Shown piece after piece: positions 12,452 to 51,293 of a DNA stretch of 64,000 bases. The notes under the pieces are model-generated. The model had not been told where the DNA came from. It searched no databases and worked only from the letters and a program-made list of their open reading frames with translations. Source of the DNA: a phage. Location: the NCBI GenBank assembly GCA_019897865.1, contig GCA_019897865.1_4532.1. One strand, given 5' to 3'. Within the stretch, counting starts at the first letter, position 1, and every line of letters begins with the position of its first letter. A program made the position numbers and the translations under genes.

Positions 12452-14476
12452 TTATCGTGTTACAACAACCATGTCCACGATATCACCCACACCAGGATAC
12501 GTTAATTGCAAAATTGTTACTGCGTTAGCAGTAGTTGCTATTTCTGTATCATTTAGTGCTCCATAAGACGCATCTAGTGTAACCGTGTGTCCCGTTGTAT
12601 CTTGAATCAAATAAATCATTGCTGAAAACGCTTTAGGTTTTGTAGAGCCAGTGACACCAGGCCATGCTCCAACTGTCAGAGCGTCAGTTACTGTAACAAC
12701 ATACATATTGGAAGTTCCAGAAGGAGTCCAAGATGCTCCAGAGTTGGCAGTAGTTGTTTCAAGTTCCATGAAACCTGCTGTAACTCTAGTTGGTGTTATA
12801 GCTTCCGTAGGATCTGATCCGGATATTTCGATCCAATTTCCATCAGACCTACCATACGTCAAGCCGTCTTGAGGGGCTTCTGGTATACTAGGAAGAGTGC
12901 CTATAAGCGTCCACGTAGAAGAATCTGTTTTCTTAAACACTGCTCCAGTGGTAGTATTGAAGGCGTAATCATTGATAACACCGTCTCCTGCGACTGGATT
13001 AGTTGTTGCTACAAACCACTGTGCGCCGTCCTTACCGTTGGTCCCATCAGTACCGTTGGTTCCGTTTGTTCCAGGATCACCCTTATCTCCTTTATCCCCT
13101 TTTTCACCTTTGTCGCCTTTAATACTTCCCATGTCAACAAAAGATGCGGAATTGGTGTCTTGATCGTAGGTATAGATGTAAAGATTACTAGTGTCTTCAG
13201 TTAAATAGGCATCACCGTAGTTATTATAAACAGGGAGAGCTTCACTGTTCGGAACATGACCTTTAGCTGTAATTGATGTTCCTCCAAGACTGCCAACATT
13301 CATCCATTCCGTAGCATCTTGAACCCAAACATACAAATCATTATTAATTTTATATGCATCACCTACTTCTCCAGTAGGAGGAAGTTCAGCTTCGCTGTTC
13401 AGAACCCCGATAATCTCTAAACCTGATCCTGTTGCACCCACTGGTCCTTGTGGACCTAGTTCACCTTGTGGACCTCGCTCTCCTTGATCACCCTTGTCTC
13501 CTTTTGGACCTTTAAGTGAGGCAATAAAATCTACTTCTGTCCCTTCATTACCAGCATCCAGCCAACTTTGATATGCAGATTTCCCTTCATCTCCATCTGT
13601 TCCATCTAGACCGTCTTTTCCTGCCTCGCCTTGTGGACCTTGAGGACCAACAATATTACCCATGTTGACCCAAGCTGTCCCATTAGAGACATAAAGATTA
13701 CCATTGATAGAATAAGCTTGGCTTACGTTTTCAGAGTTAGGTTGTGGTAAGTTACTTGTAGAAGGCAAATCTCCACGATAATCAAAACCGTTGGCGTTAA
13801 CACCAGGTGCTCCCTGTGGCCCTGTAGGACCAACATCGCCTTTATCACCTTTTATAGAGGTAAGGAAATCATAAACAGATCCTGTATTACCATCTGCCAA
13901 CCATACCTCGTAAGCTGATTTACCTTCTGGCCCAAGAGAAGAAATAAGTTTCCAAACAGAACCATCCCAAGCGTAGATTACATCACCTACGATATAACCA
14001 TCCCCTGCAACGTTACCTGTGGATGGTAGTTCACTAGTGCTTGCTAATGATCCTTTAATATTAAGTTGAGCACCAGTATCCCCTTTCAAAGAGGCAAGCC
14101 ACTGTGCTTCTGTTCCAACAAAACCATTATCAAGTGCGATCTGATAAGCCGATTTACCAGCTTCAGGTATTGTTTCCGACAGATCATCAATCTGTTGCTG
14201 CATTGCCGTAAACTTGGCATTGATAATTGCTATATCATCAGCGGTCCCAACACTTTGCCATGCAAGGGAAGAAATACCACCTGTGGTGGCTGGCGTAGAG
14301 TTTGCTGGAACCACTTTAGGAAAAGTTCCTTTCCATTGGTAATAATTCCCTTCTGCTGCTAACAGCAAAACTTCACGGGAATTACGTAATGTAAAACCTG
14401 CCTCAAAGCTGCGACGTTTTCGATAAGTAGCTTCTACCAGATCGGCTATCGCACTATTAGGTCTTGTTAAATTCAT
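12452..14476 (-). CDS. Tail fiber protein with collagen-like G-X-Y triple-helix repeats
   Basis: 674 aa with several G-X-Y runs (GPQGPQGEAGKDGLDGTDG; KGPKGDKGDQGERGPQGELGPQGPVG; KGDKGEKGDKGDKGDPGTNGTNGTDG); N-terminal motif W.G.FPK...STP..TGG shared with two tailspikes. Confidence 0.75.
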   Translation of the reverse strand: MNLTRPNSAIADLVEATYRKRRSFEAGFTLRNSREVLLLAAEGNYYQWKGTFPKVVPANSTPATTGGISSLAWQSVGTADDIAIINAKFTAMQQQIDDLSETIPEAGKSAYQIALDNGFVGTEAQWLASLKGDTGAQLNIKGSLASTSELPSTGNVAGDGYIVGDVIYAWDGSVWKLISSLGPEGKSAYEVWLADGNTGSVYDFLTSIKGDKGDVGPTGPQGAPGVNANGFDYRGDLPSTSNLPQPNSENVSQAYSINGNLYVSNGTAWVNMGNIVGPQGPQGEAGKDGLDGTDGDEGKSAYQSWLDAGNEGTEVDFIASLKGPKGDKGDQGERGPQGELGPQGPVGATGSGLEIIGVLNSEAELPPTGEVGDAYKINNDLYVWVQDATEWMNVGSLGGTSITAKGHVPNSEALPVYNNYGDAYLTEDTSNLYIYTYDQDTNSASFVDMGSIKGDKGEKGDKGDKGDPGTNGTNGTDGTNGKDGAQWFVATTNPVAGDGVINDYAFNTTTGAVFKKTDSSTWTLIGTLPSIPEAPQDGLTYGRSDGNWIEISGSDPTEAITPTRVTAGFMELETTTANSGASWTPSGTSNMYVVTVTDALTVGAWPGVTGSTKPKAFSAMIYLIQDTTGHTVTLDASYGALNDTEIATTANAVTILQLTYPGVGDIVDMVVVTR

Positions 14477-14538: not shown

Positions 14539-17500
14539 TTAGGTTGTTGGCACATCTACTACTGGCGTTGGGCGAATAACCGCAGTATTACCTACAGAAA
14601 CATTACTGGAATCATTAGGTATGGTTTTAATTCTAACTCCAGCACTTGTAGGCGTTACAATTGGATCTGCAATGTCTATTTTAACTGGGTTAGTCCACGT
14701 ATCATTATCTTGATAAGGTGCACGAGTAATAACTGTGTCCAAATCTGCTCCACCTACGCCAGCACCAGGAATACGGATACGTGTCCCTGCTGACAGAGGG
14801 TAATGATACAACCAAGAAGCATTTGTTGCTGTCCCGTTAGGAGTCAAGTTCTGTGTCAGGAAGGTATCTCCTGCCTGTGTAGCTCGAATACCGAAAGCTG
14901 GGATATCTGGAATATATGCCCCACTTGTTGTTACAAGGAAGAACGTATTATCCGCTTTGACTATCATATCACCTTTGTCAAACTCTTTCCCTGTTGGGAA
15001 ATGCATTCCATCAATGTTTCGACTAGGATTAGGCTCTAAGTAATAAACTTTGCCCGTTGTCCCTACAATAGCTCCAATACCACCTGCGATATTGGTATAC
15101 ATATTAGCTTCAACATTACAGTTGACACGATGAATATCCGAGTAACGGCAACGGCTCCACTGTGGACGACCAGTAACCATCGTCTTGCCATCTGGGTAAC
15201 AGTTTACGTTAACCATTTCAAGAACAGATTTTTCTCTACGGAAGAATCCATCATAAAATGTTCCTGGACCAGATTCAGGTTGACCAACACAATCGAAGAT
15301 ATTACAGGTGATGTTAGACATTGAAAGCCAAGAAGCTATACCGAACAACTGCAATGCAGCGCAACGAATATTTTCAAAGCTAACTCTGTTTTCATAACCT
15401 GGCCCAGCGGAAACTCCCGCAAAAACACGCCCAGTTTTGGTGTGAATGTTACGAACAGAATAGTTAAAACATGGGTTTGAAGGTCTACCCTGTGCCGGAA
15501 CTACCGGATTACCCTCTTCGTCCAGAACTGCGTTAGTTCCCCACTCCAAATAAATCATACGGATATTACTTGCAAGTGTGCTACCGTCTGTTTTAGGCTC
15601 TCCATAAACACCGTCAATCGTAAAATCTTTACTTCCATACATTACAACTGCGCCAGTTGCCAAACCTGTCCCAACAGATACGGTTTGATCTGGATCGCCA
15701 TGAATGTTTTCGATAGAAATATTACGACCAACTTCTACGTGGACAATCTGACGGCAACGTTTTGCAAAAACGTTACGAATTGTAATATTCTTGCAATATT
15801 GATCATCAGGGATTCCGTAACCATATGGTCCTTTACCAGCTACACCGATACCGATACCCCAGTTGGACAGAGGAATAGGAGCGTTAGTCCCATCGATATT
15901 AGACAGGTAAATATTCTCAATCACACAACCATCATCATAATGTTTATTGATGACATTCAGTTCTATCGCATCACCTTGCATGTCCATGAAGGTAAGGTTA
16001 CGGAAGACACCGCGTGTTACTGGTTCTCCTGTCCCTTGTTGAAGGATGCCATATAACCCGTTTTTAAAAGTACAATTATCAATTTCAAAAGTACCTGATA
16101 TTGGGTTGCCTTGGAATACCAAGCTACCAACTTGACCTGCGCGAGGAGCACCGTCCCACAAACAATCGAACATGCGCACAGCACCACCCCAATACATAAC
16201 ACGAGAGTTACGGAAAGTTGTGCCTTCTACTGTAGCATTCTGCACACGATAGTCGCGTTGACCACGGAACACACCACCACGCAAAGTGATACCTTGAATA
16301 TCAAAAGAGCTTGTCGTGAAAGTCATATCGCAACCGTAAGCATCGAGAATCTTACTTTTCGAAGCTTTTGCTGCTAACAGTGCCGCCTGGAAAGCTGCTT
16401 CTGGTGTGGTATAGGTAGTTGTATTGTTAGCAAATTCTGACAAGTAGACAACATCGAATAAATCGTTGTATGTTCCACCACGAGGGGTTAACAGTCCTTC
16501 CGTATTAGTTAGAACCCATGCGTTTGGACCTAATCCACCGCTTGTCTCTAACGTGTCAGAGGCCAAAATACTTTTTGGTAAACTTCCAGCCCAACGATAA
16601 CGACCAGCACCACGTCCAATCGTCTGATTTTTAGCTGTCAGAGTTACATTATTACCAAAGCTTGTAGGCAAATGAACAAACTGTCCACGTTCAACAGCTA
16701 ATGCAGAAAGATCTACAGATCCGCCAGAATAAGTCATTACTCCAGAAACAGACAAAGATGTTAAAGTCCCTGTGATGTTAGGAGGCAATGTGTAGGAAGA
16801 TTGTGCTACTGGATCATACAGAGCTTTAATCCCTGTTAATGATTGACCCGCTGTTGCGTAAGCTACTTCATCATCCAACAAACCGTATTTACGAGCAATA
16901 GTTTGTAAAGGTACTTTATCCATGCTTTCTGTCAGTTCTTCAGTTTTTGTTTCTAAACTGACAAGACGGTTCTCTAGATTAGGATCTGTATCTGCTGAAG
17001 CTACGATTTTACCAATATAAGCGAAAAGCTTGTTTGGCAGTCCTGTTGCAGGATCGTGTCCCAAAGGTTCAGATAAGATGATCTTACTATCTTCTATACG
17101 GAAAGCTTCCCCCAGAACCTGAATAACACCATTGATCGTAACAATAGCACTATCAAAGATGTAAGGAGGACTGATTACTGTTTCATAACCAGTTGCACCA
17201 GAATATACCCAAGGTGTGACTTCTGTTGCCAATTGTTCTGTCTTCAATCCCCACAATACCCAGTTGTTATCTCCTACTGGAGTACCTTGCATAGGGATTG
17301 GGTTTACCAATGTAGCATTAGGAGCATAATAATAACCGCTCAATACCCCATTCTGAAAATAACGTAGTTGGTTAAAAACTGTTTCGTTTGTGCCTTGCGC
17401 CCAATCCAATGGGCTTTTAAAGAAAAAGTTGTCAACAAGGGCTTTTCTCAGGGTTGGTATCAACCCTGATTCTGTTTCAATACTCTCTGTAGCACTTCCA

Positions 17501-17592
17501 TTAATAACATCATGGAGTTGGTTAGATGAGAAAATAACCAGGTCTACGCCCTGTTCGAGAGACGTTGCTGGATATGTTGGGAATGTTGCCAT
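14539..17592 (-). CDS. Tailspike protein (right-handed parallel beta-helix, putative polysaccharide depolymerase)
   Basis: 1017 aa; repetitive beta-helix-like segments (NCTFKNGLYGIL..., NLTFMDMQGDAIEL...); shares YRWAGSLPK...GG...NAWV motif with 22273..24543 and 12452..14476. Confidence 0.7.
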   Translation of the reverse strand: MATFPTYPATSLEQGVDLVIFSSNQLHDVINGSATESIETESGLIPTLRKALVDNFFFKSPLDWAQGTNETVFNQLRYFQNGVLSGYYYAPNATLVNPIPMQGTPVGDNNWVLWGLKTEQLATEVTPWVYSGATGYETVISPPYIFDSAIVTINGVIQVLGEAFRIEDSKIILSEPLGHDPATGLPNKLFAYIGKIVASADTDPNLENRLVSLETKTEELTESMDKVPLQTIARKYGLLDDEVAYATAGQSLTGIKALYDPVAQSSYTLPPNITGTLTSLSVSGVMTYSGGSVDLSALAVERGQFVHLPTSFGNNVTLTAKNQTIGRGAGRYRWAGSLPKSILASDTLETSGGLGPNAWVLTNTEGLLTPRGGTYNDLFDVVYLSEFANNTTTYTTPEAAFQAALLAAKASKSKILDAYGCDMTFTTSSFDIQGITLRGGVFRGQRDYRVQNATVEGTTFRNSRVMYWGGAVRMFDCLWDGAPRAGQVGSLVFQGNPISGTFEIDNCTFKNGLYGILQQGTGEPVTRGVFRNLTFMDMQGDAIELNVINKHYDDGCVIENIYLSNIDGTNAPIPLSNWGIGIGVAGKGPYGYGIPDDQYCKNITIRNVFAKRCRQIVHVEVGRNISIENIHGDPDQTVSVGTGLATGAVVMYGSKDFTIDGVYGEPKTDGSTLASNIRMIYLEWGTNAVLDEEGNPVVPAQGRPSNPCFNYSVRNIHTKTGRVFAGVSAGPGYENRVSFENIRCAALQLFGIASWLSMSNITCNIFDCVGQPESGPGTFYDGFFRREKSVLEMVNVNCYPDGKTMVTGRPQWSRCRYSDIHRVNCNVEANMYTNIAGGIGAIVGTTGKVYYLEPNPSRNIDGMHFPTGKEFDKGDMIVKADNTFFLVTTSGAYIPDIPAFGIRATQAGDTFLTQNLTPNGTATNASWLYHYPLSAGTRIRIPGAGVGGADLDTVITRAPYQDNDTWTNPVKIDIADPIVTPTSAGVRIKTIPNDSSNVSVGNTAVIRPTPVVDVPTT

Positions 17593-17940: not shown

Positions 17941-18486
17941 TTATTCTGTCGGTAATGTAGGCCAATCTATAGCGTAAGGATAGTCTTTTTGAAGCGGAAC
18001 ACGATTTAGTTTAACTACATAAACTTGAAGATTTTTAAGATAAGCTAATTCGTCTTCAGTAGCCATTTCTAAATCTTTAGCATACTGTAAAGGTGTTATA
18101 AGTGCTACCGCTGTTTCTTGTAAAGAGCGAATTTTTGCACTAGCTTGTGTCATCAACTCTTCACGGGAATACTCTTTATTCTTAAGAGTTAAGGTTTCTA
18201 AATCCAGAACCTTGTTCCTAATATCCTCAAAAGTATCTATGTTAAAGTCTACTTGTGCTATAGAAAGATCTTCAGGGCAAAGTAGTGTAGGATCAGTATT
18301 CCAAAACACAATACGATTTTGATCATCAAAAACGACTTTCATTTTATCGTTATTGAATTCTGTGCTACGTAAATCATACCAATCGTAACCTTGATCGCAA
18401 CGAAGAAAAAGAATGTTCTCTGCTTCTACCAATTCTTTTAGTTCAGGGTCTTCAGGAATATATTTTTTAAAGTTTGTAAATATCAT
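17941..18486 (-). CDS. Putative tail fiber assembly protein (Tfa/P2 gpG-like, positional)
   Basis: 181 aa immediately downstream of a tail fiber gene; size and position match the P2 H-G arrangement. Confidence 0.4.
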   Translation of the reverse strand: MIFTNFKKYIPEDPELKELVEAENILFLRCDQGYDWYDLRSTEFNNDKMKVVFDDQNRIVFWNTDPTLLCPEDLSIAQVDFNIDTFEDIRNKVLDLETLTLKNKEYSREELMTQASAKIRSLQETAVALITPLQYAKDLEMATEDELAYLKNLQVYVVKLNRVPLQKDYPYAIDWPTLPTE

Positions 18487-20189: not shown

Positions 20190-21677
20190 TTACACTCCAT
20201 ACTCGTAAGAAATGTTATCAAGGTCAAAAGAAGGGACAACATTATAAGCAGGAACTATATTATTCTCTGTATATTTACTGTCATCCTCAGTATTAAGTTT
20301 AACATAAACACGAAGAGAAGTCAAGCGTCCAAAAGCAAGTGCTGCATAAATAACACCTTTGATTTGATCGTTCGTTACTGAAGAACCTAACTCAAAGTAA
20401 GCTTGCAGGTTTTGTAAAGCTTCTACGATGTTTTGTTTTTCTGTTCCACTTAAAGTTGTTCCGTTGACAGTTTGATAAACAAGTTTTACGGAATACATAG
20501 CAGAAGCACCAGGAGAGAAGCGAATAATTTCTTGTCCTCCATCTTCTGTTGTAACTGTTATGTTTGTTGTTCCGTGTGTCAAAGTGTTGATTGGTTTGGT
20601 TTTATAGATAACATTTGCAATTTCTTCTGCACTGCCACCATAAACTATAGTCTGGAAAGTCATAGCTGGAGCATGTTCTTGATCATGTAATGTAGGGTTA
20701 TCATAAATCTTCACCTTAGTAACACCATCTGTAAGTAGCAGAGCTTTCACAATAGCTGCTCGTGTCCCTGCGTTAGCTTCGTCAACGTTGTCATTGAAAC
20801 GAGAGCGGAATTCTGCGTCTGTCTCAACATCTCGACCAGGGGAAAATGAATAGAAGTTACCACTATCAAGATAACCTGTAAAGGTAGAAGATATCCCTGT
20901 AATAGACTCCACACCCACCGGATTGTATCCTTTCTCTGCTGCAACTACCGGAATTTCACTCCATTTGGTTCCAACTGGAACACTAGCATAAAATTTGATA
21001 GGAGTTACTAGTCCCACTGGAGTATCACTGGTTAAAGAAGTAAAACCAATTGACAAGTTACCAGAATCAGAAAATACAAGACTACGATCAGCCTCTGTTA
21101 AGTTTGCCTTGATAAAAGTTTCAAGATCGGCTATAAATGTAGAAGAACCAGGTGCAAGTGTTTTACTGTTTAGTCCTCCATCTATCGCACTTTGTGCATA
21201 AAAAGTAATATTTGGAACACCTGTAGCAGTTGCATTAGCACGAGAAATTTGATAAGCTGCAATCTTAGCATTCAACATAGTTGGTGTGCTAACATAGTAG
21301 TTCATATCGCTATCAGAGTTGAAATAAATATCTGTGCCTAACTCGTAAGTCCAAGCTGCTTTGTTATTACTTTTAACATATGCATATCCTGTACTTGCTG
21401 CCGCCCCTGCTCGATAGAAACCACGTTTAGAAAAGATTTCATCAAGATAAATACCTTCTGCACCATCCAGTGTTTGAGTATTATAAACCCCTTGCATACC
21501 TTCCCACAATGTGTAATCTGTGTATGCAATTATTCTAAACAGTTGTCCGATCACAGTATCTTCCGAAGTGGCTGCATCTGCACCAAATGTGTTTTTTACT
21601 GCTGTCATGTAGTTGTTTAAAACATCGTCAAAAGTCGGGATTACAAATCCCGCATCTGTCAAACCATATTCGTCCAT
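20190..21677 (-). CDS. Baseplate J-like (wedge) protein
   Basis: 495 aa; N-terminal region has baseplate J-like character; gene order J-I-H-G as in P2-like baseplates. Confidence 0.5.
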   Translation of the reverse strand: MDEYGLTDAGFVIPTFDDVLNNYMTAVKNTFGADAATSEDTVIGQLFRIIAYTDYTLWEGMQGVYNTQTLDGAEGIYLDEIFSKRGFYRAGAAASTGYAYVKSNNKAAWTYELGTDIYFNSDSDMNYYVSTPTMLNAKIAAYQISRANATATGVPNITFYAQSAIDGGLNSKTLAPGSSTFIADLETFIKANLTEADRSLVFSDSGNLSIGFTSLTSDTPVGLVTPIKFYASVPVGTKWSEIPVVAAEKGYNPVGVESITGISSTFTGYLDSGNFYSFSPGRDVETDAEFRSRFNDNVDEANAGTRAAIVKALLLTDGVTKVKIYDNPTLHDQEHAPAMTFQTIVYGGSAEEIANVIYKTKPINTLTHGTTNITVTTEDGGQEIIRFSPGASAMYSVKLVYQTVNGTTLSGTEKQNIVEALQNLQAYFELGSSVTNDQIKGVIYAALAFGRLTSLRVYVKLNTEDDSKYTENNIVPAYNVVPSFDLDNISYEYGV

Positions 21678-21919
21678 TAGTCATCCTCTTTGGTAGATTG
21701 TGATCTGCCCCAGCGTAAATCAATAAGATTTTTCATGAGGCGAGAAGGAGTTATCATGAAAACAAAAGCCCAACCCATCCATTCAGGAATTTCTTTTTCT
21801 ATTCCTAAAAAGATAAACATGCCTGTCATGGTTAGCATTCCCAGTGCGTTCCACACTTTAGTAGAACTGATTTTGTTGTTTGGATAAGTACAAAACATTC
21901 CGATTAAAAACTTTCTCAT
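21677..21919 (-). CDS. Small membrane protein (2 predicted TM helices)
   Basis: 80 aa with two hydrophobic stretches; holin-like topology but located in the tail module. Confidence 0.35.
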   Translation of the reverse strand: MRKFLIGMFCTYPNNKISSTKVWNALGMLTMTGMFIFLGIEKEIPEWMGWAFVFMITPSRLMKNLIDLRWGRSQSTKEDD

Positions 21920-22227
21920 GGTGCGTTCTCATTACTTTTTAAATCACGATATACAGCTAATTCCCCAAGGTCTACAGAACCCGCTGAATGCACAAGTACA
22001 GCAGCAGTACTAAGGCTTATAGCAGTAACCCCAGAACCAAGGTTAGCTGGTAAGGAGTAAGCACGCTGTGACACTTTGTCATAAATGACTTTGTAACCAC
22101 CTAAGTCTACACCTACAGCAAAGTAGACTACTTCATTCTGTTTAACACCAAACTTACGAGCAATGGCTTGTTTATTGGTAAGAATACCAGTGGAGCCTTT
22201 ACCACCTTGACTAAACATTTCGTTCAT
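21916..22227 (-). CDS. Small protein homologous to an internal module of the 1017-aa tailspike
   Basis: 103 aa; ARKFGVKQNEVVYFAVGV...SLPANLGSGVTAIS...SAGSVDLGELAVYRD aligns with ARKYGLLDDEVAYATAGQ...TLPPNITGTLTSLS...SGGSVDLSALAVERG of 14539..17592. Confidence 0.45.
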   Translation of the reverse strand: MNEMFSQGGKGSTGILTNKQAIARKFGVKQNEVVYFAVGVDLGGYKVIYDKVSQRAYSLPANLGSGVTAISLSTAAVLVHSAGSVDLGELAVYRDLKSNENAP

Positions 22228-22272
22228 ATGTACCTCAAATTATTTTACCCCCCTCCTTCGGGGGGTTTTTCA

Positions 22273-24543
22273 TTATCTGACTACGAATTTACCAAGGCTA
22301 ATATCGTTTATCAGAGTTGCAACGATGTTTGCCAGTTGGGTGGTTGTTAACGTGTTCACATCACCACCACGCAACTGTCCAGCGTTGGTGAACGGGAATT
22401 GTTGCGGGGTTGCGCTATTGGCAAACTGGTTGTTAGCCTCATAACGTTTTGTTGGTACAGGGTTGTACCCAATACTGCCTGTGGTTGTGTCAGGAGCCAC
22501 GCAGTTCGTAATATTCACTATAGCGGCAGAACCACTACCATTTGTATATATTGGCCTGTTAACCGTTCCGAATGGTTGCACAGCTACCAGTCTGTTAACA
22601 ATAACACTCTGTGAGGCTAGCGCCTGTAAATAAGATTCTGCGCTCCCGTTGCACCCCCTCAAGTTCACATTATCAACATCTATGTGGCGGCAGTTAATGA
22701 TGACGATATAATGCCCATTTTCTGTGTTAGGGTAAGCGCCTACTATGCGAACATTTTTTAATGTTAAATCCGTGGTTGGAACCGCAGCAGGCCCACCGTT
22801 GAAAACAAACCCTTTTGCACCATTTGCAAGTGCGTGTATCGTAATGCCGTCAAACTCGATGTCGGCAAGATTAGTCGTGGTATTGGCTGAGTTTGCCAAA
22901 AAATAAACAGCCTCAGCAGAGCAACCTGATATCAAGAAGTTAGAAAAACGCATCCTTGTGTTTTCTACCGGATAGAAGCGGCATAACAAACCCTGCGAGC
23001 AGTTACGAATAACAACGTTATCGTAGGATACGTCACTAGCTCCTTCAATTGCGACACCTGCGTTCGAACTTTCTACATATAGTCCAGTAACTACTCCATT
23101 ACGGAAATTCCCTCGAAGACCGTGGCTTTCACAGTTTTTGATTGTAACGGCGTTTATGTTAACTCTTGTGATAGCAGTGCCATCACCATAACCGTTCACA
23201 AGGTCGTCTGACTGAATACGCAAACCGTTACCACCAGAGGTATTAATGCTCACATCGTTAATCATAAGATTAAGCGTACGGTTTGGGCGACGTGATGAGA
23301 AGAACAAGGATGAGGCCCAAGTGTTTCTGCAACGGATATGATGGACGTGCGCCTCTGTGGGGTCGTTAACAATAATTGCCATGCCTTGACGATTGCTGCC
23401 GTCCGGCTGTTGGATTTTCCCACGTCCACAATCGTGTGAATACAGACTGTCAGCCAACGCCCAGCGACCATAATCCATTGTTACGTTACTGTTCCACGCA
23501 CCTTGTAATTCACACCCTGAAAGCTCAAGCGTGCCAGTGGATTGCATAGCTAGCCCAACCCCAGGGTCAAATGACGCATCCTGTCGGTAGAAATCGAACA
23601 GGAAGTTGCCAACAATGCGGATGTCATATGGCGTATAGTCATATTCCTGGTTTGTTTCGTTCCAGGTTCGTGGTGATCTCAACCAGAACTGACGTGAATC
23701 AACGGTTACTTTTGGCAGCAATGGCTTGAGTCGGATGTCTCCCTGAATAATGAAGATTCCTTCAACATTCACAGGAGAATAACCAATGTAGATATTACCA
23801 GCCTTTGGCAACAAACGAGTAAGCTGTGCATCATTCTGGGCAATCTTCCATCCAGTAACTACTTCGTTAAAAAATGATGCCGGGAATAGCTCGTATGTCT
23901 CATTAATTACAGTTTGATCAAAACTGGTCACAGTCACCGATGAAGTAAGTGCAGAATCTAGCATCATCAGTTTGCCATTCACCCTAATAAACATTACTCC
24001 GGACGGGATAACATCACCGACAGACAACGAACGATTGTTCTCTGTTGGGAAGCAGGAACCACCGTAAAAACCTGATGATACGTTGGTAGAAAAATCACTG
24101 TATTTCACCCAGGCATTTGACGATACTCCGCCAGTACTATCCGGAGTAGAATTATCAGAAATAGTTTTTGGGAAAGAGCCTGCCCAGGTGTAACACTGAC
24201 CCGCTGCGATATGCCAAACCGCATCCTCTTTACTGTTTACTGTAGCGCCTTCTTCAAAGCTACCATTGACAAGGGTTAACCCTGCCTCAGCAAGACTACG
24301 ACGCCACTGTTCACGATCATTAAGAAGATTGTTATTCAACTCTTCCTGAACAGTATTACCATTTGAGGATTGTATTAAATCTGCTCCATCTGTATCTTTC
24401 AACTGGGTGGCTAAAACCACCCCAATGTCAGTAAGAAAGTTGGAAACTGTGCTTTTAACAGTTTTATCAGGTTGATCTAAAACCAGGTAATCTGAACCAT
24501 TAACTTTTGATGTTTCGGGTAAATTAGTAATTGTAGTTGACAT
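22273..24543 (-). CDS. Tailspike protein (parallel beta-helix, pectate-lyase-like depolymerase)
   Basis: 756 aa; beta-helix repeats (NCESHGLRGNFRNGVVTGLYVESSNAGVAIEG..., NVVIRNCSQGL...); conserved anchor motif CYTWAGSFPKTISDNSTPDSTGG. Confidence 0.7.
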   Translation of the reverse strand: MSTTITNLPETSKVNGSDYLVLDQPDKTVKSTVSNFLTDIGVVLATQLKDTDGADLIQSSNGNTVQEELNNNLLNDREQWRRSLAEAGLTLVNGSFEEGATVNSKEDAVWHIAAGQCYTWAGSFPKTISDNSTPDSTGGVSSNAWVKYSDFSTNVSSGFYGGSCFPTENNRSLSVGDVIPSGVMFIRVNGKLMMLDSALTSSVTVTSFDQTVINETYELFPASFFNEVVTGWKIAQNDAQLTRLLPKAGNIYIGYSPVNVEGIFIIQGDIRLKPLLPKVTVDSRQFWLRSPRTWNETNQEYDYTPYDIRIVGNFLFDFYRQDASFDPGVGLAMQSTGTLELSGCELQGAWNSNVTMDYGRWALADSLYSHDCGRGKIQQPDGSNRQGMAIIVNDPTEAHVHHIRCRNTWASSLFFSSRRPNRTLNLMINDVSINTSGGNGLRIQSDDLVNGYGDGTAITRVNINAVTIKNCESHGLRGNFRNGVVTGLYVESSNAGVAIEGASDVSYDNVVIRNCSQGLLCRFYPVENTRMRFSNFLISGCSAEAVYFLANSANTTTNLADIEFDGITIHALANGAKGFVFNGGPAAVPTTDLTLKNVRIVGAYPNTENGHYIVIINCRHIDVDNVNLRGCNGSAESYLQALASQSVIVNRLVAVQPFGTVNRPIYTNGSGSAAIVNITNCVAPDTTTGSIGYNPVPTKRYEANNQFANSATPQQFPFTNAGQLRGGDVNTLTTTQLANIVATLINDISLGKFVVR

Positions 24544-24551
24544 TTTTACTC

Positions 24552-26705
24552 CTATATATAAAATTTTTGTGTTGTTACTAAATCTTCTCCAGATTTAGTG
24601 GCTAATGTAATTCCACTTATGGTGGCAATCTCAACATTTACCTGTTTAAGAGTGATATCCTGTAAATAAACGTTCAAAGGCACGTTACCCATATAGAAAA
24701 CTTGGGATTGAGAATTAACTACCGTGATAGAATCGTGCATTATTTGAGGATAGGCCCATATATATTGTGTAAGTCCGTCAAACTTATTGGCGTTCAACAC
24801 TATGTTACCTATAATCATTTTCCAAAGATACGTGCGGTAGTTTGATTCAGGATCAAAGCCATACAAAGGTGCAAGAGTAGCATCTGGAACAAAACCTGCA
24901 AGATAATGTATCTTATCATAACTAAAACCTAATTGTTCATTAGGTATTGTGATAGCGTCAAAAGATTTTTCCATCTTACCTTCCAACAACCAGTCATAAC
25001 ATTCTGAACAATAAAAGTCGAAGTTTTCTGGGATATAATAATCTTTAGGGAAGTTAACAAACTCCATCATACCGTTACCTAAAATGGATGGCACAAATGG
25101 TAATAATGTAACTTTAGCTCCAGGATAGGCTAATCTAGTATCTGTTGCAAACTTTGCAACTCTTAATCCTAGTTTACGAGACAAAAATGCATAGTATTCG
25201 TCAAACGGTGTTCCTGTTTTATAATTATCTATTGTTCCTACATCTTGTGCAAATAAACCTGTTTCTGTGTTGAATGCTAGTTTAGTAGTGTAATCGTATA
25301 TACAAGGCATTTTACTCGCTGTATTATACCACCACCAAGGCTCACCAATTTGAATGACAACTGGAATATTATTAGCTTGCGAAATAGATGCTATTTTATT
25401 AATAACATTTTGCAAATATTTCATACCTTCGTCAATAGTTGGAGACAACACGTAACTAGGAGGCTTATACCCTGTTGCTGCAAGAGCATCGTTCCAATCA
25501 TGCTGGACCCATTCAACAGGACAAACTGTGCTCATCAACTCAAAACTTAAAGAGTTCATTATTGTGTAACCCTTCTCGTTCGCTATAGAATGGAAACTAT
25601 TTAGCCAAGCTTCTGTAGCTGGATTCAGGAAGACAGATCTATTTAAAGCCCAAGATGTTCCGTTCCATGAGAACTCATAATAGTGAGACATTCCATTGTA
25701 ATGGTTAATCATTCCACGATAACCTAGCGCATATGTATTATAAATAACTCTCTCTGGAGTCAGATTATACATATCGTCATAAGATGTGCACATGCGAATA
25801 TCATGTTCAGGCTGGACAAGGTTACTGACTTTCATCATACTATAACCAGAAGTAGGTTCAAGAAGAGTGAAAGTAAACCAAGCCTCTTGACTATCAATAG
25901 GCACAATCTCTTCTATTTCTTCATACCTTGCTGTAATCAAAGAGAAGAAAATATTATCTACAGCACTCATGTCCAAAGGAATATCATTATTAGGACCAGA
26001 GAAGATATTACCAAAATCTAATTTGATTGTAGCTGTTTTACCATCTTCTGAAATATCTGAAGCATAAAATCCTAAACTAACATAGTGGACACTTTTATCC
26101 AAGAGAGTTACAGTCAAAGTTGGCACCAAAGGTTCTTCTTTAAAACCTGGCATGTTTTGACTAATTTCCATTTTAAACCAAAGTTTCTCTGAACTTAAAT
26201 CTGTGTGGGGTAAATACCCAACACCTTTATGGTCATATTTGTCAACTGTGCTCCAGATAACCCCTGCCAAACCTGCTGTTGTTCTGTTTACAAATCTTGC
26301 AGTAAAAGAGTCTCCATGAGATACAATAGAACAACTTTCCGTTGCTTGAGAATCTATTGTCCAATACATAGGAGAGAACATTTTAACGTCTTTTGTAGTC
26401 CAAGTTATTGGAGTAGTATTTTCTTGGATCGTAGTTATAATACAGTTGATGGTCGTTTCAACCATCATGTTATTTTGACTAATCCCTGAAACTTGGAGGG
26501 AGAAGTTAAGATCTATTGAGTTCTTTGGTCGTTCAAATACTTCAACCACAATGGTAGCAGAATCAGCATCATCAGGGAACACAAGTGTTCCCGATTTTGC
26601 AATATAATCTCTACCAGCGACTGCTGTTCCGTCAACAGTCGTGTAGTTAAATGAACTCGCATTTACTCTTTTGTCTCGCGTGACAGTAAATATAGCTTGT
26701 TTCAT
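24552..26705 (-). CDS. Tailspike/tail fiber protein with N-terminal Calx-beta-like domain
   Basis: 717 aa; N-terminus TVTRDKRVNASSFNYTTVDGTAVAGRDYIAKSGTLVFPDDADSATIVVEV fits the Calx-beta pattern. Confidence 0.6.
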   Translation of the reverse strand: MKQAIFTVTRDKRVNASSFNYTTVDGTAVAGRDYIAKSGTLVFPDDADSATIVVEVFERPKNSIDLNFSLQVSGISQNNMMVETTINCIITTIQENTTPITWTTKDVKMFSPMYWTIDSQATESCSIVSHGDSFTARFVNRTTAGLAGVIWSTVDKYDHKGVGYLPHTDLSSEKLWFKMEISQNMPGFKEEPLVPTLTVTLLDKSVHYVSLGFYASDISEDGKTATIKLDFGNIFSGPNNDIPLDMSAVDNIFFSLITARYEEIEEIVPIDSQEAWFTFTLLEPTSGYSMMKVSNLVQPEHDIRMCTSYDDMYNLTPERVIYNTYALGYRGMINHYNGMSHYYEFSWNGTSWALNRSVFLNPATEAWLNSFHSIANEKGYTIMNSLSFELMSTVCPVEWVQHDWNDALAATGYKPPSYVLSPTIDEGMKYLQNVINKIASISQANNIPVVIQIGEPWWWYNTASKMPCIYDYTTKLAFNTETGLFAQDVGTIDNYKTGTPFDEYYAFLSRKLGLRVAKFATDTRLAYPGAKVTLLPFVPSILGNGMMEFVNFPKDYYIPENFDFYCSECYDWLLEGKMEKSFDAITIPNEQLGFSYDKIHYLAGFVPDATLAPLYGFDPESNYRTYLWKMIIGNIVLNANKFDGLTQYIWAYPQIMHDSITVVNSQSQVFYMGNVPLNVYLQDITLKQVNVEIATISGITLATKSGEDLVTTQKFYI

Positions 26706-49369: not shown

Positions 49370-49448
49370 TGGAGGCGGGAATTGGATTTGAACCAATGAT
49401 CTCCAGCATATGAAACTGGCGAGGACGACCAAACTCCTCTATCCCGCT
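49370..49448 (-). tRNA. tRNA-Met (anticodon CAT); initiator/elongator/Ile-lysidine not resolved
   Basis: Hand-folded cloverleaf: T-arm ATTGG-TTCAAAT-CCAAT, anticodon loop TTCATAT, encoded CCA; A1-C72 mismatch at acceptor top. Confidence 0.6.
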
Positions 49449-49454
49449 ATTATG

Positions 49455-49526
49455 TATCCCGTGCTGGATTCGAACCAGCGTCACAAGAAATTGTGGATCT
49501 CTTATCCTGTAAGTCTAACGGGAAAC
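49455..49526 (-). ncRNA. tRNA-like element (canonical T-arm and acceptor, no canonical anticodon arm)
   Basis: T-arm GCTGG-TTCGAAT-CCAGC and near-complementary acceptor strands, but the central region forms CACAA-TTTC-TTGTG instead of a 5-bp/7-nt anticodon arm. Confidence 0.3.
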
Positions 49527-49600
49527 TGGTTGTTTCGACAAGAATCGAACTTGTGTCTCACGATTATCAGTCGTGGGTTCTACCATTGAACTACGAAACA
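49527..49600 (-). tRNA. tRNA-Ile (anticodon GAT)
   Basis: Perfect cloverleaf: acceptor TGTTTCG/CGAAACA, D GTTC/GAAC, anticodon stem CACGA/TCGTG with loop CTGATAA, T-arm ACAAG-TTCGATT-CTTGT, encoded CCA. Confidence 0.75.
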
Positions 49601-49606
49601 TTTAAT

Positions 49607-49683
49607 TGGTCGGAATTGCAGGATTCGAACCTGCGACCCTACGCTCCCAAAGCGTATGCTCTACCAAACTGAGCTAAATTCCG
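49607..49683 (-). tRNA. tRNA-Pro (anticodon TGG)
   Basis: Acceptor CGGAATT/AATTCCG, D GCTC/GAGC, anticodon stem TACGC/GCGTA with loop TTTGGGA, T-arm GCAGG-TTCGAAT-CCTGC, CCA. Confidence 0.75.
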
Positions 49684-49688
49684 TTATA

Positions 49689-49764
49689 TGGCTGGTCTGT
49701 CTGGATTTGAACCAAACCTACGACAGTCAAAGTGTCGTGTGCTACCGGACTACACTACAAACCA
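49689..49764 (-). tRNA. tRNA-Gln (anticodon TTG)
   Basis: Acceptor TGGTTTG/CAGACCA (U1-A72, G73), anticodon stem CGACA/TGTCG with loop CTTTGAC, T-arm TTTGG-TTCAAAT-CCAGA, CCA. Confidence 0.7.
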
Positions 49765-49862
49765 ATAAATCATTTAATGAAGGGCAACCAGAAGAGGTGT
49801 GAGAGAAGGAGAAAACCATGAGTAAAAGAGAAAGTTTTCTGGCAACCCTTTATTAAATAATT

Positions 49863-49936
49863 TGGAGCGTTCTACGAGGATCGAACTCGTGCCGCCGACT
49901 TGGAAGGACGGAATGCTACCGCTACACCAAGAACGC
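49863..49936 (-). tRNA. tRNA-Gly (anticodon TCC)
   Basis: Acceptor GCGTTCT/AGAACGC, anticodon loop CTTCCAA, T-arm ACGAG-TTCGATC-CTCGT, discriminator U, CCA; one mismatch in anticodon stem. Confidence 0.65.
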
Positions 49937-49947
49937 CCTACATCTTT

Positions 49948-49977
49948 ACTATACTACATTTTACTATTGATTGTCAA
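49948..49977 (-). promoter_or_regulatory. Promoter (CTATTGACAA family) for downstream tRNA block
   Basis: - strand CTATTGACAA with TTGACA at 49977..49972, about 18-bp spacer, TATAGT; ends about 12 nt before tRNA-Gly. Confidence 0.5.
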
Positions 49978-50250
49978 TAGTTTTATTGAGTGGGACAGTG
50001 ACGAGTATCCCATTGGGTGACTAGCCCTACGTTCGGTAAGCTAACTTAAAATAATACAAAACCAAAGTCAAATATTATTCTTCGTTGCTGTCGATGGGAG
50101 AGCCGCTTCTTCTTTTGCCCCATCCAACCCTACTCCGGTCAAGTTTCAGGTAACTCTTTTTGTGATCAACACAATACTAAGAACACTGTCTTTCGAACAG
50201 ACCTTGTGCACAGGATACGACGATCAATCACAGTGCCCTTAATGTTGTGT

Positions 50251-50325
50251 TGGTGCTCCCACTCTGAATCGAACAGAGATCCACGGATTACAAAACCGTT
50301 GTAATAGCCATTATACTATAGGAGC
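50251..50325 (-). tRNA. tRNA-Thr (anticodon TGT)
   Basis: Acceptor GCTCCTA/TGGGAGC, anticodon loop TTTGTAA, T-arm CTCTG-TTCGATT-CAGAG, A73, CCA; loop-closing pair mismatched. Confidence 0.6.
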
Positions 50326-50331
50326 AAAGCT

Positions 50332-50408
50332 GGGACTCGGCAGGATTCGATACCTGCAATTCCAGAAGCCTCTTGGCGACTGGGGGTTTACCTTAACTCT
50401 ACAAGTCC
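50332..50408 (-). ncRNA. tRNA-like element with extended central hairpin in place of the anticodon arm
   Basis: Good acceptor (GGACTTG/CGAGTCC) and T-arm-like GCAGG...CCTGC (8-nt loop), but middle forms CCAGTCGCC-AAGA-GGCTTCTGG; no CCA. Confidence 0.3.
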
Positions 50409-50415
50409 ATAATTC

Positions 50416-50501
50416 TGGCGATGAGTATAGGATTTGAACCTATATCGTTCTTTCGAACACGGATTAACAGTCCGCCGCTTAAACCATTCAGCCAACTCAT
50501 C
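50416..50501 (-). tRNA. Class II (long variable arm) tRNA with anticodon GTT (Asn codons)
   Basis: 86 nt: acceptor GATGAGT/ACTCATC, 3-bp D stem, anticodon stem GCGGA/TCCGT with loop CTGTTAA, variable arm GTTC-GAAA-GAAC, T-arm ATAGG-TTCAAAT-CCTAT, G73, CCA. Confidence 0.55.
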
Positions 50502-50507
50502 TTAATT

Positions 50508-50595
50508 TGGTGGTGAGTGATGGAGTCGAACCACCCGAATCGCAATGATAACAGATTTACAGTCTGCCCCGCTACCCCTACGGAATTAACTCACC
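50508..50595 (-). tRNA. tRNA-Tyr (anticodon GTA), class II
   Basis: 88 nt: acceptor GGTGAGT/ACTCACC, anticodon stem GCAGA/TCTGT with loop CTGTAAA, long variable region, T-arm GGTGG-TTCGACT-CCATC, A73, CCA. Confidence 0.65.
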
Positions 50596-50725
50596 TAAAT
50601 ACTAATATTTAAATTCTTTTTAAAATAGCCAGTGTTCACACCACTAACTATGATTTATCGGTAAGATGGTGGGGGCCATCTGCCGAAAGTTTACTCTATT
50701 AAAGTAAGCCATATTAAAAAGAACT

Positions 50726-50811
50726 TGGCGGTAGATGTAGGACTCGAACCTACACGCCGTTTCCGACTACAGTTTAGCAAACTGTCGTGGCTACCATTTC
50801 ACCAATCTACC
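50726..50811 (-). tRNA. tRNA-Ser (anticodon GCT), class II
   Basis: 86 nt: acceptor GGTAGAT/ATCTACC, anticodon stem ACAGT/ACTGT with loop TTGCTAA, variable arm GTCG-GAAA-CGGC, T-arm GTAGG-TTCGAGT-CCTAC, G73, CCA. Confidence 0.7.
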
Positions 50812-50816
50812 TAATC

Positions 50817-50907
50817 TGGCGGAAGGAGGGAGAGTCGAACTCCCAAGGCTCTTTCAAGCTCGGCGGTTTTCAAGACCGTTTTCGTCGCCACGTCGATTTG
50901 CCCTTCC
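50817..50907 (-). tRNA. tRNA-Ser (anticodon TGA), class II
   Basis: About 91 nt: acceptor GGAAGGG/TCCTTCC, anticodon loop CTTGAAA, variable arm GCTT-GAAA-GAGC, T-arm GGGAG-TTCGACT-CTCCC, G73, CCA. Confidence 0.65.
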
Positions 50908-50911
50908 ATAC

Positions 50912-50945
50912 TTATAATCTAACATAAAATAATGTTTGTTGTCAA
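50912..50945 (-). promoter_or_regulatory. Promoter (CTATTGACAA family) for the tRNA-Ser block
   Basis: - strand CTATTGACAA (TTGACA 50945..50940), 18-bp spacer ...AAACATTATTTTATGT, TAGATT, then tRNA-Ser about 9 nt downstream. Confidence 0.5.
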
Positions 50946-51141
50946 TAGTTTTTTAAAACATTTTACCATGAATGGTGACTCCACCAACCCCCGTTCTCCA
51001 CGAACGGTGCTCTTCGAGCATTTATGTCTTCTAATATAACCGTGGCCTTTGTTTATAATGTCTGACATATTTGCCTCATTCTCTGCCACCATGATCAGTA
51101 GTGGGTTCAAATCACTTGAGCTAATTCATGTTAAAATGTTC

Positions 51142-51216
51142 TGGTGTCTTTACAAGGAATCGAACCTTGACTAAGAGTTTAGAAGACTCCTGTGCTATCC
51201 ATTACACCATAAAGAC
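51142..51216 (-). tRNA. tRNA-Arg (anticodon TCT)
   Basis: Acceptor GTCTTTA/TAAAGAC, D GTGT/GCAC, anticodon stem GGAGT/ACTCT with loop CTTCTAA, T-arm CAAGG-TTCGATT-CCTTG, CCA. Confidence 0.7.
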
Positions 51217-51218
51217 TT

Positions 51219-51293
51219 TGGTGGCCCTGGCTGGTTTCGATCCAGCTACCTATCGGTTATGAGCCGACAGCTCTCCCATTGAGCTACAGGGCC
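51219..51293 (-). tRNA. tRNA-Met (anticodon CAT), elongator-type; unusual T-loop ATCGAAA
   Basis: Acceptor GGCCCTG/CAGGGCC, D GCTC/GAGC, anticodon stem GTCGG/CCGAT with loop CTCATAA, T-arm GCTGG-ATCGAAA-CCAGC, A73, CCA. Confidence 0.65.

Follow-up and report, generated by a model that had tools for sequence, protein, structure and literature searches.

A 103-aa open reading frame beside the variable tailspike gene of a phAPEC8-like phage is probably a relic of tailspike exchange and a homology arm for later swaps

What is a short open reading frame (ORF) of 103 codons doing between the variable tailspike gene and the baseplate genes of a contractile-tailed phage, when its product resembles an internal segment of a 1017-aa spike encoded nearby? 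The ORF could be a free copy of a spike domain with a use of its own, a piece of a neighbouring spike, a folding aid, or what is left after an exchange of tailspike genes. Data from the present analysis of a 64,000-nt stretch of phage DNA (the window) suggest the last of these, and with a probability of roughly 0.78 the ORF is a gene relic, namely the cut-off start of a tailspike gene of the gp63.1/TSP1 type. Such a relic is a genuine trace of tailspikes being swapped between unrelated phages, and probably no working part of the virus.

The window is assigned to a phAPEC8-like myophage of the genus Phapecoctavirus, subfamily Stephanstirmvirinae (phAPEC8, phi92); nucleotide identity is 98–99% to phAPEC8-type phages in the replication region and 94–97% to ZCKP1, ukendt and others in the tail region. 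All tail genes of the window lie on the minus strand (Table 1), and in transcription order they encode a gp65-like protein, the 756-aa spike, the 103-aa ORF, an 80-aa membrane protein, baseplate J, a 209-aa baseplate protein, a tail fibre, an assembly protein, a 111-aa protein, the 1017-aa spike and a 674-aa fibre. The ORF exists as described in the earlier note, which did not give its strand (minus), and it has the position claimed there, 3′ of the 756-aa spike gene and 5′ of the genes for the 80-aa membrane protein and baseplate J. The first tail gene in transcription order encodes a 717-aa protein that combines a Calx-beta domain with two domains of the N4 gp65-type sheath protein (N-terminal and TIM-barrel), i.e. 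a gp65-type ‘non-contractile tail sheath’ gene adjoins the spike locus in a contractile-tailed phage. Elsewhere in the window, 10 tRNA genes are found at 49370–51293 on the minus strand (Met twice, Ile, Pro, Gln, Gly, Thr, Asn, Ser and Arg).

Table 1. Features of the tail locus, with positions in the window
Feature	Position	Strand	Remark
N4 gp65-like ‘non-contractile tail sheath’ protein	24552–26705	minus	first in transcription order
756-aa variable tailspike gene	22273–24543	minus	chimera of anchor and gp66-like body
N-terminal anchor of variable spike (aa 1–74)	24322–24543	minus	Stephanstirmvirinae-specific, kept in all relatives
D2 and body of 756-aa spike (aa 75–756)	22273–24321	minus	homologous to G7C gp66 aa 382–1063
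Intergenic spacer	22228–22272	minus	stem-loop and ribosome-binding site; probably came with the cassette
G+C-rich stem-loop	22247–22266		in the spacer between the 756-aa spike gene and the 103-aa ORF
Ribosome-binding site GAGGT	22232–22236		4 nt 5′ of the ATG of the 103-aa ORF
103-aa ORF, ATG start	21916–22227	minus	probable truncated 5′ end of a gp63.1/TSP1-type tailspike gene: D1 and 9-residue non-native tail
Codons 1–94, D1 homology	21946–22227	minus	PDB sequence, DNA and AF2 model comparisons
Donor-type 5′ part (about nt 1–210), mosaic	22018–22227	minus	30-nt identity bins
Resident relic 3′ part (about nt 225–312)	21916–22003	minus	common to all relic alleles; 30-nt bins
Nine extra codons DLKSNENAP and TGA	21916–21945	minus	leader comparison with 118_SA_NWU
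80-aa membrane-protein gene	21677–21919	minus	start is the sharp right border of the putative recombination patch
Baseplate J	20190–21677	minus	
1017-aa colanic-acid-degrading spike	14539–17592	minus	XD-like (about aa 125–200), D1, D2, beta-helix body
Internal D1 domain (aa 230–302) of 1017-aa spike	16687–16905	minus	paralogue of the 103-aa ORF

The ORF product carries the head domain of known tailspikes. With PHROG profiles, its aa 1–95 correspond to positions 1–95 of many tailspike families (E 1e-24 to 1e-62) and also to internal positions 327–420 of a 1163-aa spike family. PDB sequences were matched for CBA120 TSP1 (4OJ5, aa 1–95, E 5e-47), G7C gp63.1 (4QNL, aa 1–94, E 5e-45) and phage B2 gp48 (9D84, aa 1–94), with weaker matches to TSP3, TSP4 and TSP2, and residues 1–94 are 82–87% identical to CBA120 TSP1 and G7C gp63.1. 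In the AlphaFold (AF2) model aa 16–91 are folded (pLDDT 78–88) and aa 1–15 and 92–103 are disordered, and Foldseek placed the model on the D1 domains of 4QNL, 4OJ5 and 5W6F with an rmsd of 0.9–1.4 Å over 81–86 aa. The structure prediction proposed as a check in the earlier note was thereby carried out on the ORF, and the predicted fold is that of D1, an N-terminal helix with a small beta-sandwich. An exhaustive profile search (182 representative matches) located D1 at aa 1–95 in >100 distinct full-length spikes of 500–900 aa with unrelated bodies. A few XD-first spikes have the domain further inside the chain; in one of them, a 1016-aa protein, D1 lies at aa 230–303, the same place as in the 1017-aa spike of the window.

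Comparison with characterized spikes indicates what is missing. Gp63.1 of Gamaleyavirus G7C (86% identity over aa 1–94 of both proteins, predicted fold at 0.9 Å) goes on to D2, a neck and an esterase body to a length of 851 aa and docks on XD3 of gp66, whereas the ORF stops past D1. The D1 heads of Ackermannviridae (CBA120 TSP1 4OJ5, TSP3 5W6F/6NW9, TSP4 5W6H and TSP2 6W4Q) are of the same family and fold as the ORF, with ∼82% identity to TSP1 over the Foldseek-aligned residues. In those phages D1 is always within a full spike and, together with D2, binds the XD domains of TSP4 or TSP2, whereas in the window D1 stands alone, in a myovirus of another subfamily without a D1-headed full-length spike. 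Shigella phage B2 gp48 (9D84, 9D80) has the same D1 start and is the best Foldseek match to the ORF (76% identity); gp48 is purified together with gp49, an adaptor that is a protein of its own (PMC11654681), thus D1 heads dock on a partner from a neighbouring gene. Gp48 is a full 777-aa esterase spike, and the window ORF is a predicted docking head only. No D2 (Pfam Tail_spike_N), neck or body was found after D1 in the ORF, which ends nine codons later and has no Pfam match. Because D2 and body are lacking, the ORF product is best described as a member of the D1 family and not as a functional tailspike or receptor-binding protein. No match to chaperone or assembly families (Caudo_TAP, Peptidase_S74 and similar) was obtained in Pfam or PHROGs.

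The resemblance to the resident 1017-aa spike, which had drawn attention to the ORF, is real. In BLASTP, aa 20–94 of the ORF align with aa 230–302 of this spike with 36 of 75 residues identical (48%, E = 1e-18). The score is 67.8 bits without composition correction, against 16.4 on average (sd 2.4, highest 27.3) when the ORF was shuffled 500 times, and chance similarity is rejected by this shuffled control, a check that the earlier note had called for. The motif blocks listed there were roughly right and in fact read ARKFG/ARKYG, YSLPAN/YTLPPN, SAGSVDL/SGGSVDL and ELAV/ALAV. A six-frame search of the window found only two copies of the D1 module, in the ORF and in the 1017-aa spike. Due to the fact that D1 heads many unrelated spikes, the likeness reflects paralogy within one widespread domain, and the two copies appear to be distant paralogues only. 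As for the suggestion that the ORF is a copy of the 1017-aa spike module, the likeness stands and the source does not. Copying from the resident spike was rejected, since the ORF is 82–87% identical to foreign tailspike N-termini against 48% to the resident domain, and has kept a foreign upstream context.

The 1017-aa spike itself deserves a description. Its aa 128–372 align with aa 224–465 of gp66 (XD3-D1-D2) at 27% identity, and in this phage a D1 head has no other candidate docking site than the XD-like domain of this spike, which could in principle accept such a head. The layout is gp66/TSP4-like, and aa 11–124 match a 793-aa ‘putative tail fiber protein’ in the cryo-EM entries 9CUY and 9MJN; together these suggest, by analogy, a branched receptor-binding complex like those of CBA120 and G7C in this myovirus. 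Just downstream, the 674-aa collagen-repeat fibre (12452–14476, minus strand) starts with a D2-type domain (Pfam Tail_spike_N, aa 12–77) with no D1 or other anchor in front of it, and may be attached via the XD-like domain of the 1017-aa spike, whose gene directly precedes that of the fibre.

Where does the D1 fragment end, and what follows it? For every full-length spike compared, D1 homology ends after ‘...GELAVYR’, and in DNA searches the match of the ORF to full-length spike genes ends at about codon 91–95. After nine further codons, the TGA of the ORF overlaps the ATG of the membrane-protein gene (ATGA). The leader of this gene is aagtaaggagaacgcaccATG in the D1-less relative 118_SA_NWU and aagtaatgagaacgcaccATG in the window, and approximately the last six of the nine extra codons are this native leader. 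The D1 fragment joins the leader ∼20 nt before the ATG of the membrane-protein gene, and therefore the frame continues for nine codons to a TGA. From the likeness of the two leaders, the ORF frame simply runs into the leader and ends at the TGA of the ATGA overlap, and DLKSNENAP with its stop is not spike sequence. The Shine–Dalgarno sequence of the membrane-protein gene (window 21920–21940, minus strand) is AATGAG in relic carriers and AAGGAG in a relic-less relative (L021, 3000–3018); the weaker AATGAG site coincides with the ATGA overlap, and the membrane gene could depend on translation of the relic ORF.

On the other side of the ORF, the terminator scan detected the stem-loop of the spacer, but its T-run is on the plus strand and the tail on the coding strand is merely TAAAATAATTT; we therefore claim no functional terminator before the 103-aa ORF. 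Having no clean T-run on the coding strand, the stem-loop may not terminate transcription. Its sequence differs from that of the g66–g63.1 stem-loop of G7C, with a G+C-rich hairpin retained.

The upstream context points to the donor. In the 756-aa spike, aa 75–756 are 74% identical to G7C gp66 aa 382–1063 over 685 aa, and the gp66-like spike of the window has lost the XD domains and D1 of gp66 and has a Stephanstirmvirinae anchor instead. In G7C, gp63.1 starts 47 nt past the gp66 stop. The DNA of the window and of G7C is collinear through the 3′ end of gp66, its stop codon, the stem-loop, GAGGT, the ATG and D1 up to ‘...ELAV.R’ (codon 94), where similarity ends. This collinearity spans ∼2.4 kb at 52–89% nucleotide identity, and therefore the donor would be G7C-like rather than G7C itself. 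When blastn was run against all phages, Kuttervirus and G7C-like genomes matched from ∼10 nt 5′ of the ATG to codon 91–95. The g66–g63.1 stem-loop of G7C-like phages has been reported as a bound of g66 exchanges (bioRxiv 10.1101/542787).

Eight records in the phage collection matched the gp66-like spike body, including G7C, Shigella phages MK-13, Ag3 and Gloob, and Enterobacter phage fGh-Ecl02. None of the eight is from Stephanstirmvirinae, thus the spike combination of this phage appears to be new to that collection. Other alleles in which the body and D1 come from one adjacent donor pair were sought in L019, L020 and iGC and were not found: in L019 a patch derived from Kuttervirus/Aglimvirinae comprises D1 and 95 nt upstream and excludes the body, and L020 and iGC have internal crossovers only. 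The window appears to be the one clear case found of a spike body carrying D1 as a passenger.

The same short ORF (101–103 aa) is present at the same place in ZCKP1, nieznany, iGC_PHA_EC001, PD06, BME3, PaulScherrer and others. The ORF family comprises 143 member sequences in 13 protein clusters, and the window allele is at most 91% identical to any database protein. The 102-aa CDSs annotated as ‘tail protein’ or ‘tail spike protein’ (ZCKP1 gp113, nieznany_223, BME3, PaulScherrer and others) are orthologous relics at this locus, compared with which the window copy is a new allele with a G7C-like 5′ part, paired with a gp66-like spike body. Reading such a short CDS as a relic was not found in the literature searched; nor was virion proteomics covering the ORF, the BME3 paper being without mass spectrometry.

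All copies share the breakpoint at codon 94 and the nearly invariant last ∼90 nt, and at least four N-terminal types (MNEMFSQGGKGS, MNKMFTQPTGPV, MISQFNQPRGST and MNQDFTQPTLVT) are joined to the same C-terminal 40 codons. In the window ORF, nt 121–210 are 80–90% identical to G7C gp63.1 versus 62–77% to the ZCKP1 allele, whereas from about nt 225 to nt 312 the identity is 100% to the ZCKP1 allele and 46–67% to G7C; the crossover lies at about 21988–22017, i.e. about nt 211–240 of the ORF. Over 150 nt the L019 allele matches the spike gene of an Aglimvirinae phage (ZQ1) at 100%, and from there to nt 210 at 90–93%; it is relic-type from nt 211, and its upstream 95 nt are Kuttervirus-like. Other alleles switch at about nt 181 (L020), nt 151 (iGC) and nt 121 (SF1-1). 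The survey of homologous phages proposed in the earlier note thus found that presence, breakpoints and 5′ parts at this locus vary among relatives.

Identity also changes abruptly along the locus. Compared with ZCKP1, the flanking core genes of the window are 96–100% identical, whereas D1 codons 1–62 are only 70–77% identical; compared with Justusliebigvirus-like loci, the core is 75–79%, D1 codons 63–94 are 87–89% and the tail is 100% identical. On these contrasts we take the 103-aa ORF to be a recombination patch whose right border falls sharply at the ATG of the membrane gene. Such a patch is in line with homologous recombination at the conserved 5′ ends of tsp genes, as has been proposed (PMC11414711), and with the stem-loop-bounded exchanges of g66 (bioRxiv 10.1101/542787). 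In some relatives the variable spike and the relic are separated by 300–650 bp with two to three small ORFs of unassigned origin, e.g. L001 4357–4982 (ZCKP1) and L002 4495–4927 (nieznany), as further cargo of the exchange locus.

Is the ORF maintained? Among 25 Stephanstirmvirinae rows evenly spaced in the blastn ranking, five had a full and five a partial copy, and 15 were without the ORF. In GenBank blastn only 30 records covered at least 80% of the ORF query. No copy of the ORF was found in phAPEC8 and phi92, and no trace in the distant relatives L010–L017. A scan of IMG/VR with the membrane protein gave only 10 loci, a number too small for statistics; the frequencies used here are those of the GenBank sample (25 rows). 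Decay took several forms: frameshifts in SF1-1 (at a C-run, which could be a sequencing error) and in protein P0024, a 1-nt insertion in L008, in-frame internal deletions in UAB_1 (49 aa), P0027 and P0028, 5′ truncations with new starts in ALITA (63 aa) and P0034, and a fusion in P0035. Due to its absence from ∼60% and erosion in ∼20% of sampled relatives, the ORF is dispensable to the phage. In these relatives D1 occupies only two places, the relic and the internal copy of the colanidase spike, and no full-length D1-headed spike was found in these phages.

Sequence constraint is less easily read. At all 51 positions with at least 90% conservation among 61 full-length spikes the window copy is unchanged, and a foldable D1 protein may well be produced from it for this reason. 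In violations at conserved positions the relic set is not clearly worse than the 61 full-length spikes; its 5′ parts have been repeatedly overwritten from functional donors, and its 3′ part is nearly invariant in nucleotides, synonymous sites included. Repeated overwriting from functional donors would itself yield an intact, ‘healthy’ D1, so conservation cannot separate selection from such refreshing.

In the sequence of events that we propose, the ORF would consist of the first 94 codons of a gp63.1/TSP1-type gene together with its native stem-loop, ribosome-binding site and ATG. The donor would be of G7C or Ackermannviridae type, with the gp63.1/TSP1-type gene directly 3′ of a gp66-type tailspike gene, and the D1 fragment would have entered a phAPEC8-like phage with a borrowed tailspike, the gp66-like body being the cargo. 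Since all copies share one breakpoint and the last ∼90 nt and their 5′ parts are mosaics from different donors, there is strong reason to hold that spike exchange later used the relic as its right-hand homology arm. Any D1-headed tailspike gene would find ∼280 bp of homology in it, and the left-hand arm would be the anchor/D2 region, conserved at the N-terminus of the variable spike. Double crossovers with foreign tandem tailspike clusters would then swap the spike body and put donor sequence in place of the relic's 5′ part, and the last ∼90 nt would stay. The newest event in the window would have brought in the gp66-like body together with D1 codons of gp63.1 type, the crossover lying at about nt 211–240 of the ORF. 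The product, if made, would be an isolated D1 of 11 kDa with disordered ends, without the trimerising D2-neck-body, and not needed by the phage. We class the ORF as an ordinary gene relic of modular exchange, and the idea of a remnant of spike-module shuffling, one of those raised in the earlier note, is borne out by donor synteny, truncation, mosaicism and patchy distribution.

Some observations weigh against a relic. The ORF is intact in ∼30 GenBank genomes and ∼143 database member sequences, and it has a good ribosome-binding site and ATGA coupling to the next gene. These same features, and the full conservation of D1 in the window, would be expected of a functional free docking module, expressed late and trimeric, that caps the XD-like site of the 1017-aa spike or another XD. 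Such a D1 would act as a cap, placeholder or assembly aid, standing in for the full tailspike bound at this place in CBA120 and G7C; as a body-less ‘blank’ spike it would keep both the socket and a recombination landing pad ready. In CBA120 the D1-D2 head of TSP1 binds XD3 of TSP4, gp63.1 needs XD3 of gp66 (PMC8825819), these two pairs being the ones established by experiment, and the 1017-aa spike has a gp66-XD3-like domain. Against this, phAPEC8 and phi92 have the same XD-bearing spike without the ORF, as part of the majority of sampled relatives in which it is absent or eroded. Moreover, D2, neck and body are missing, and even the D1-D2-neck fragment of TSP1 needed Zn2+ to trimerise in vitro (PMC8825819). 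The C-terminal tail of the ORF is accidental read-through into a leader, and functional donors that overwrote the ORF time and again account for its intact state. We consider a free structural role improbable, though the best placed of the alternatives. Hence, of the proposed free copy of a spike attachment domain, the domain was right, D1 being a docking head, and use as a free protein is unlikely for an ORF that is absent or decayed in most relatives.

Far less probable is that the ORF and the 756-aa CDS are two halves of one split spike, for which a frameshift or an assembly artefact would look alike. Several records carry the label ‘tail spike’ on both CDSs, and the BME3 locus was described as ‘a tail spike consisting of two CDSs of 102 and 552 aa’ (PMC12210895). 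The order, however, is wrong for a split gene, since the D1 ORF lies 3′ of a complete spike gene, which has its own conserved anchor and stop codon followed by a stem-loop; nothing spike-like comes after the D1 ORF, where the next gene encodes a membrane protein, and each part has a donor gene of its own, gp66 for the spike and gp63.1 for the D1 ORF. A chaperone or decoy mimicking D1 of the 1017-aa spike to aid or regulate its folding, as the earlier note had also suggested, draws on the 48% similarity to that internal D1 only and is the least credible reading, because no chaperone or assembly family is matched by what is an ordinary D1 sequence, the ORF is far closer to foreign spike N-termini (82–87%) than to the resident spike, it is patchy while the 1017-aa spike is conserved, and a tail fibre assembly gene is already present at the locus (17941–18486).

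For a gene relic that has served as a homology arm, the kind is known, a gene fragment from modular exchange of receptor-binding proteins; the record that it gives of exchange across phage families, and of the use of the relic as a homology arm, is unusually legible. For annotation, the ∼100-aa CDS called ‘tail protein’ or ‘tail spike protein’ in these phages is to be counted neither as a receptor-binding protein nor as half of a split spike. If free D1 were nevertheless present in virions, this would bear on how the docking sockets of branched spike complexes stay occupied, and if it acted there as a structural cap, this would be the first natural case of a stand-alone tailspike head with such a role in a branched receptor-binding complex. 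How tailspike cassettes move among unrelated groups, here N4-like podoviruses, Ackermannviridae and phAPEC8/phi92-like myoviruses, is cleanly recorded at this natural locus. Sequences that act as crossover arms are visible in it, and the D1 module, the D1/D2 boundary and the g66–g63.1 stem-loop are readable as borders of exchange, a help for host-range engineering in broad-host ‘Swiss-army-knife’ phages.
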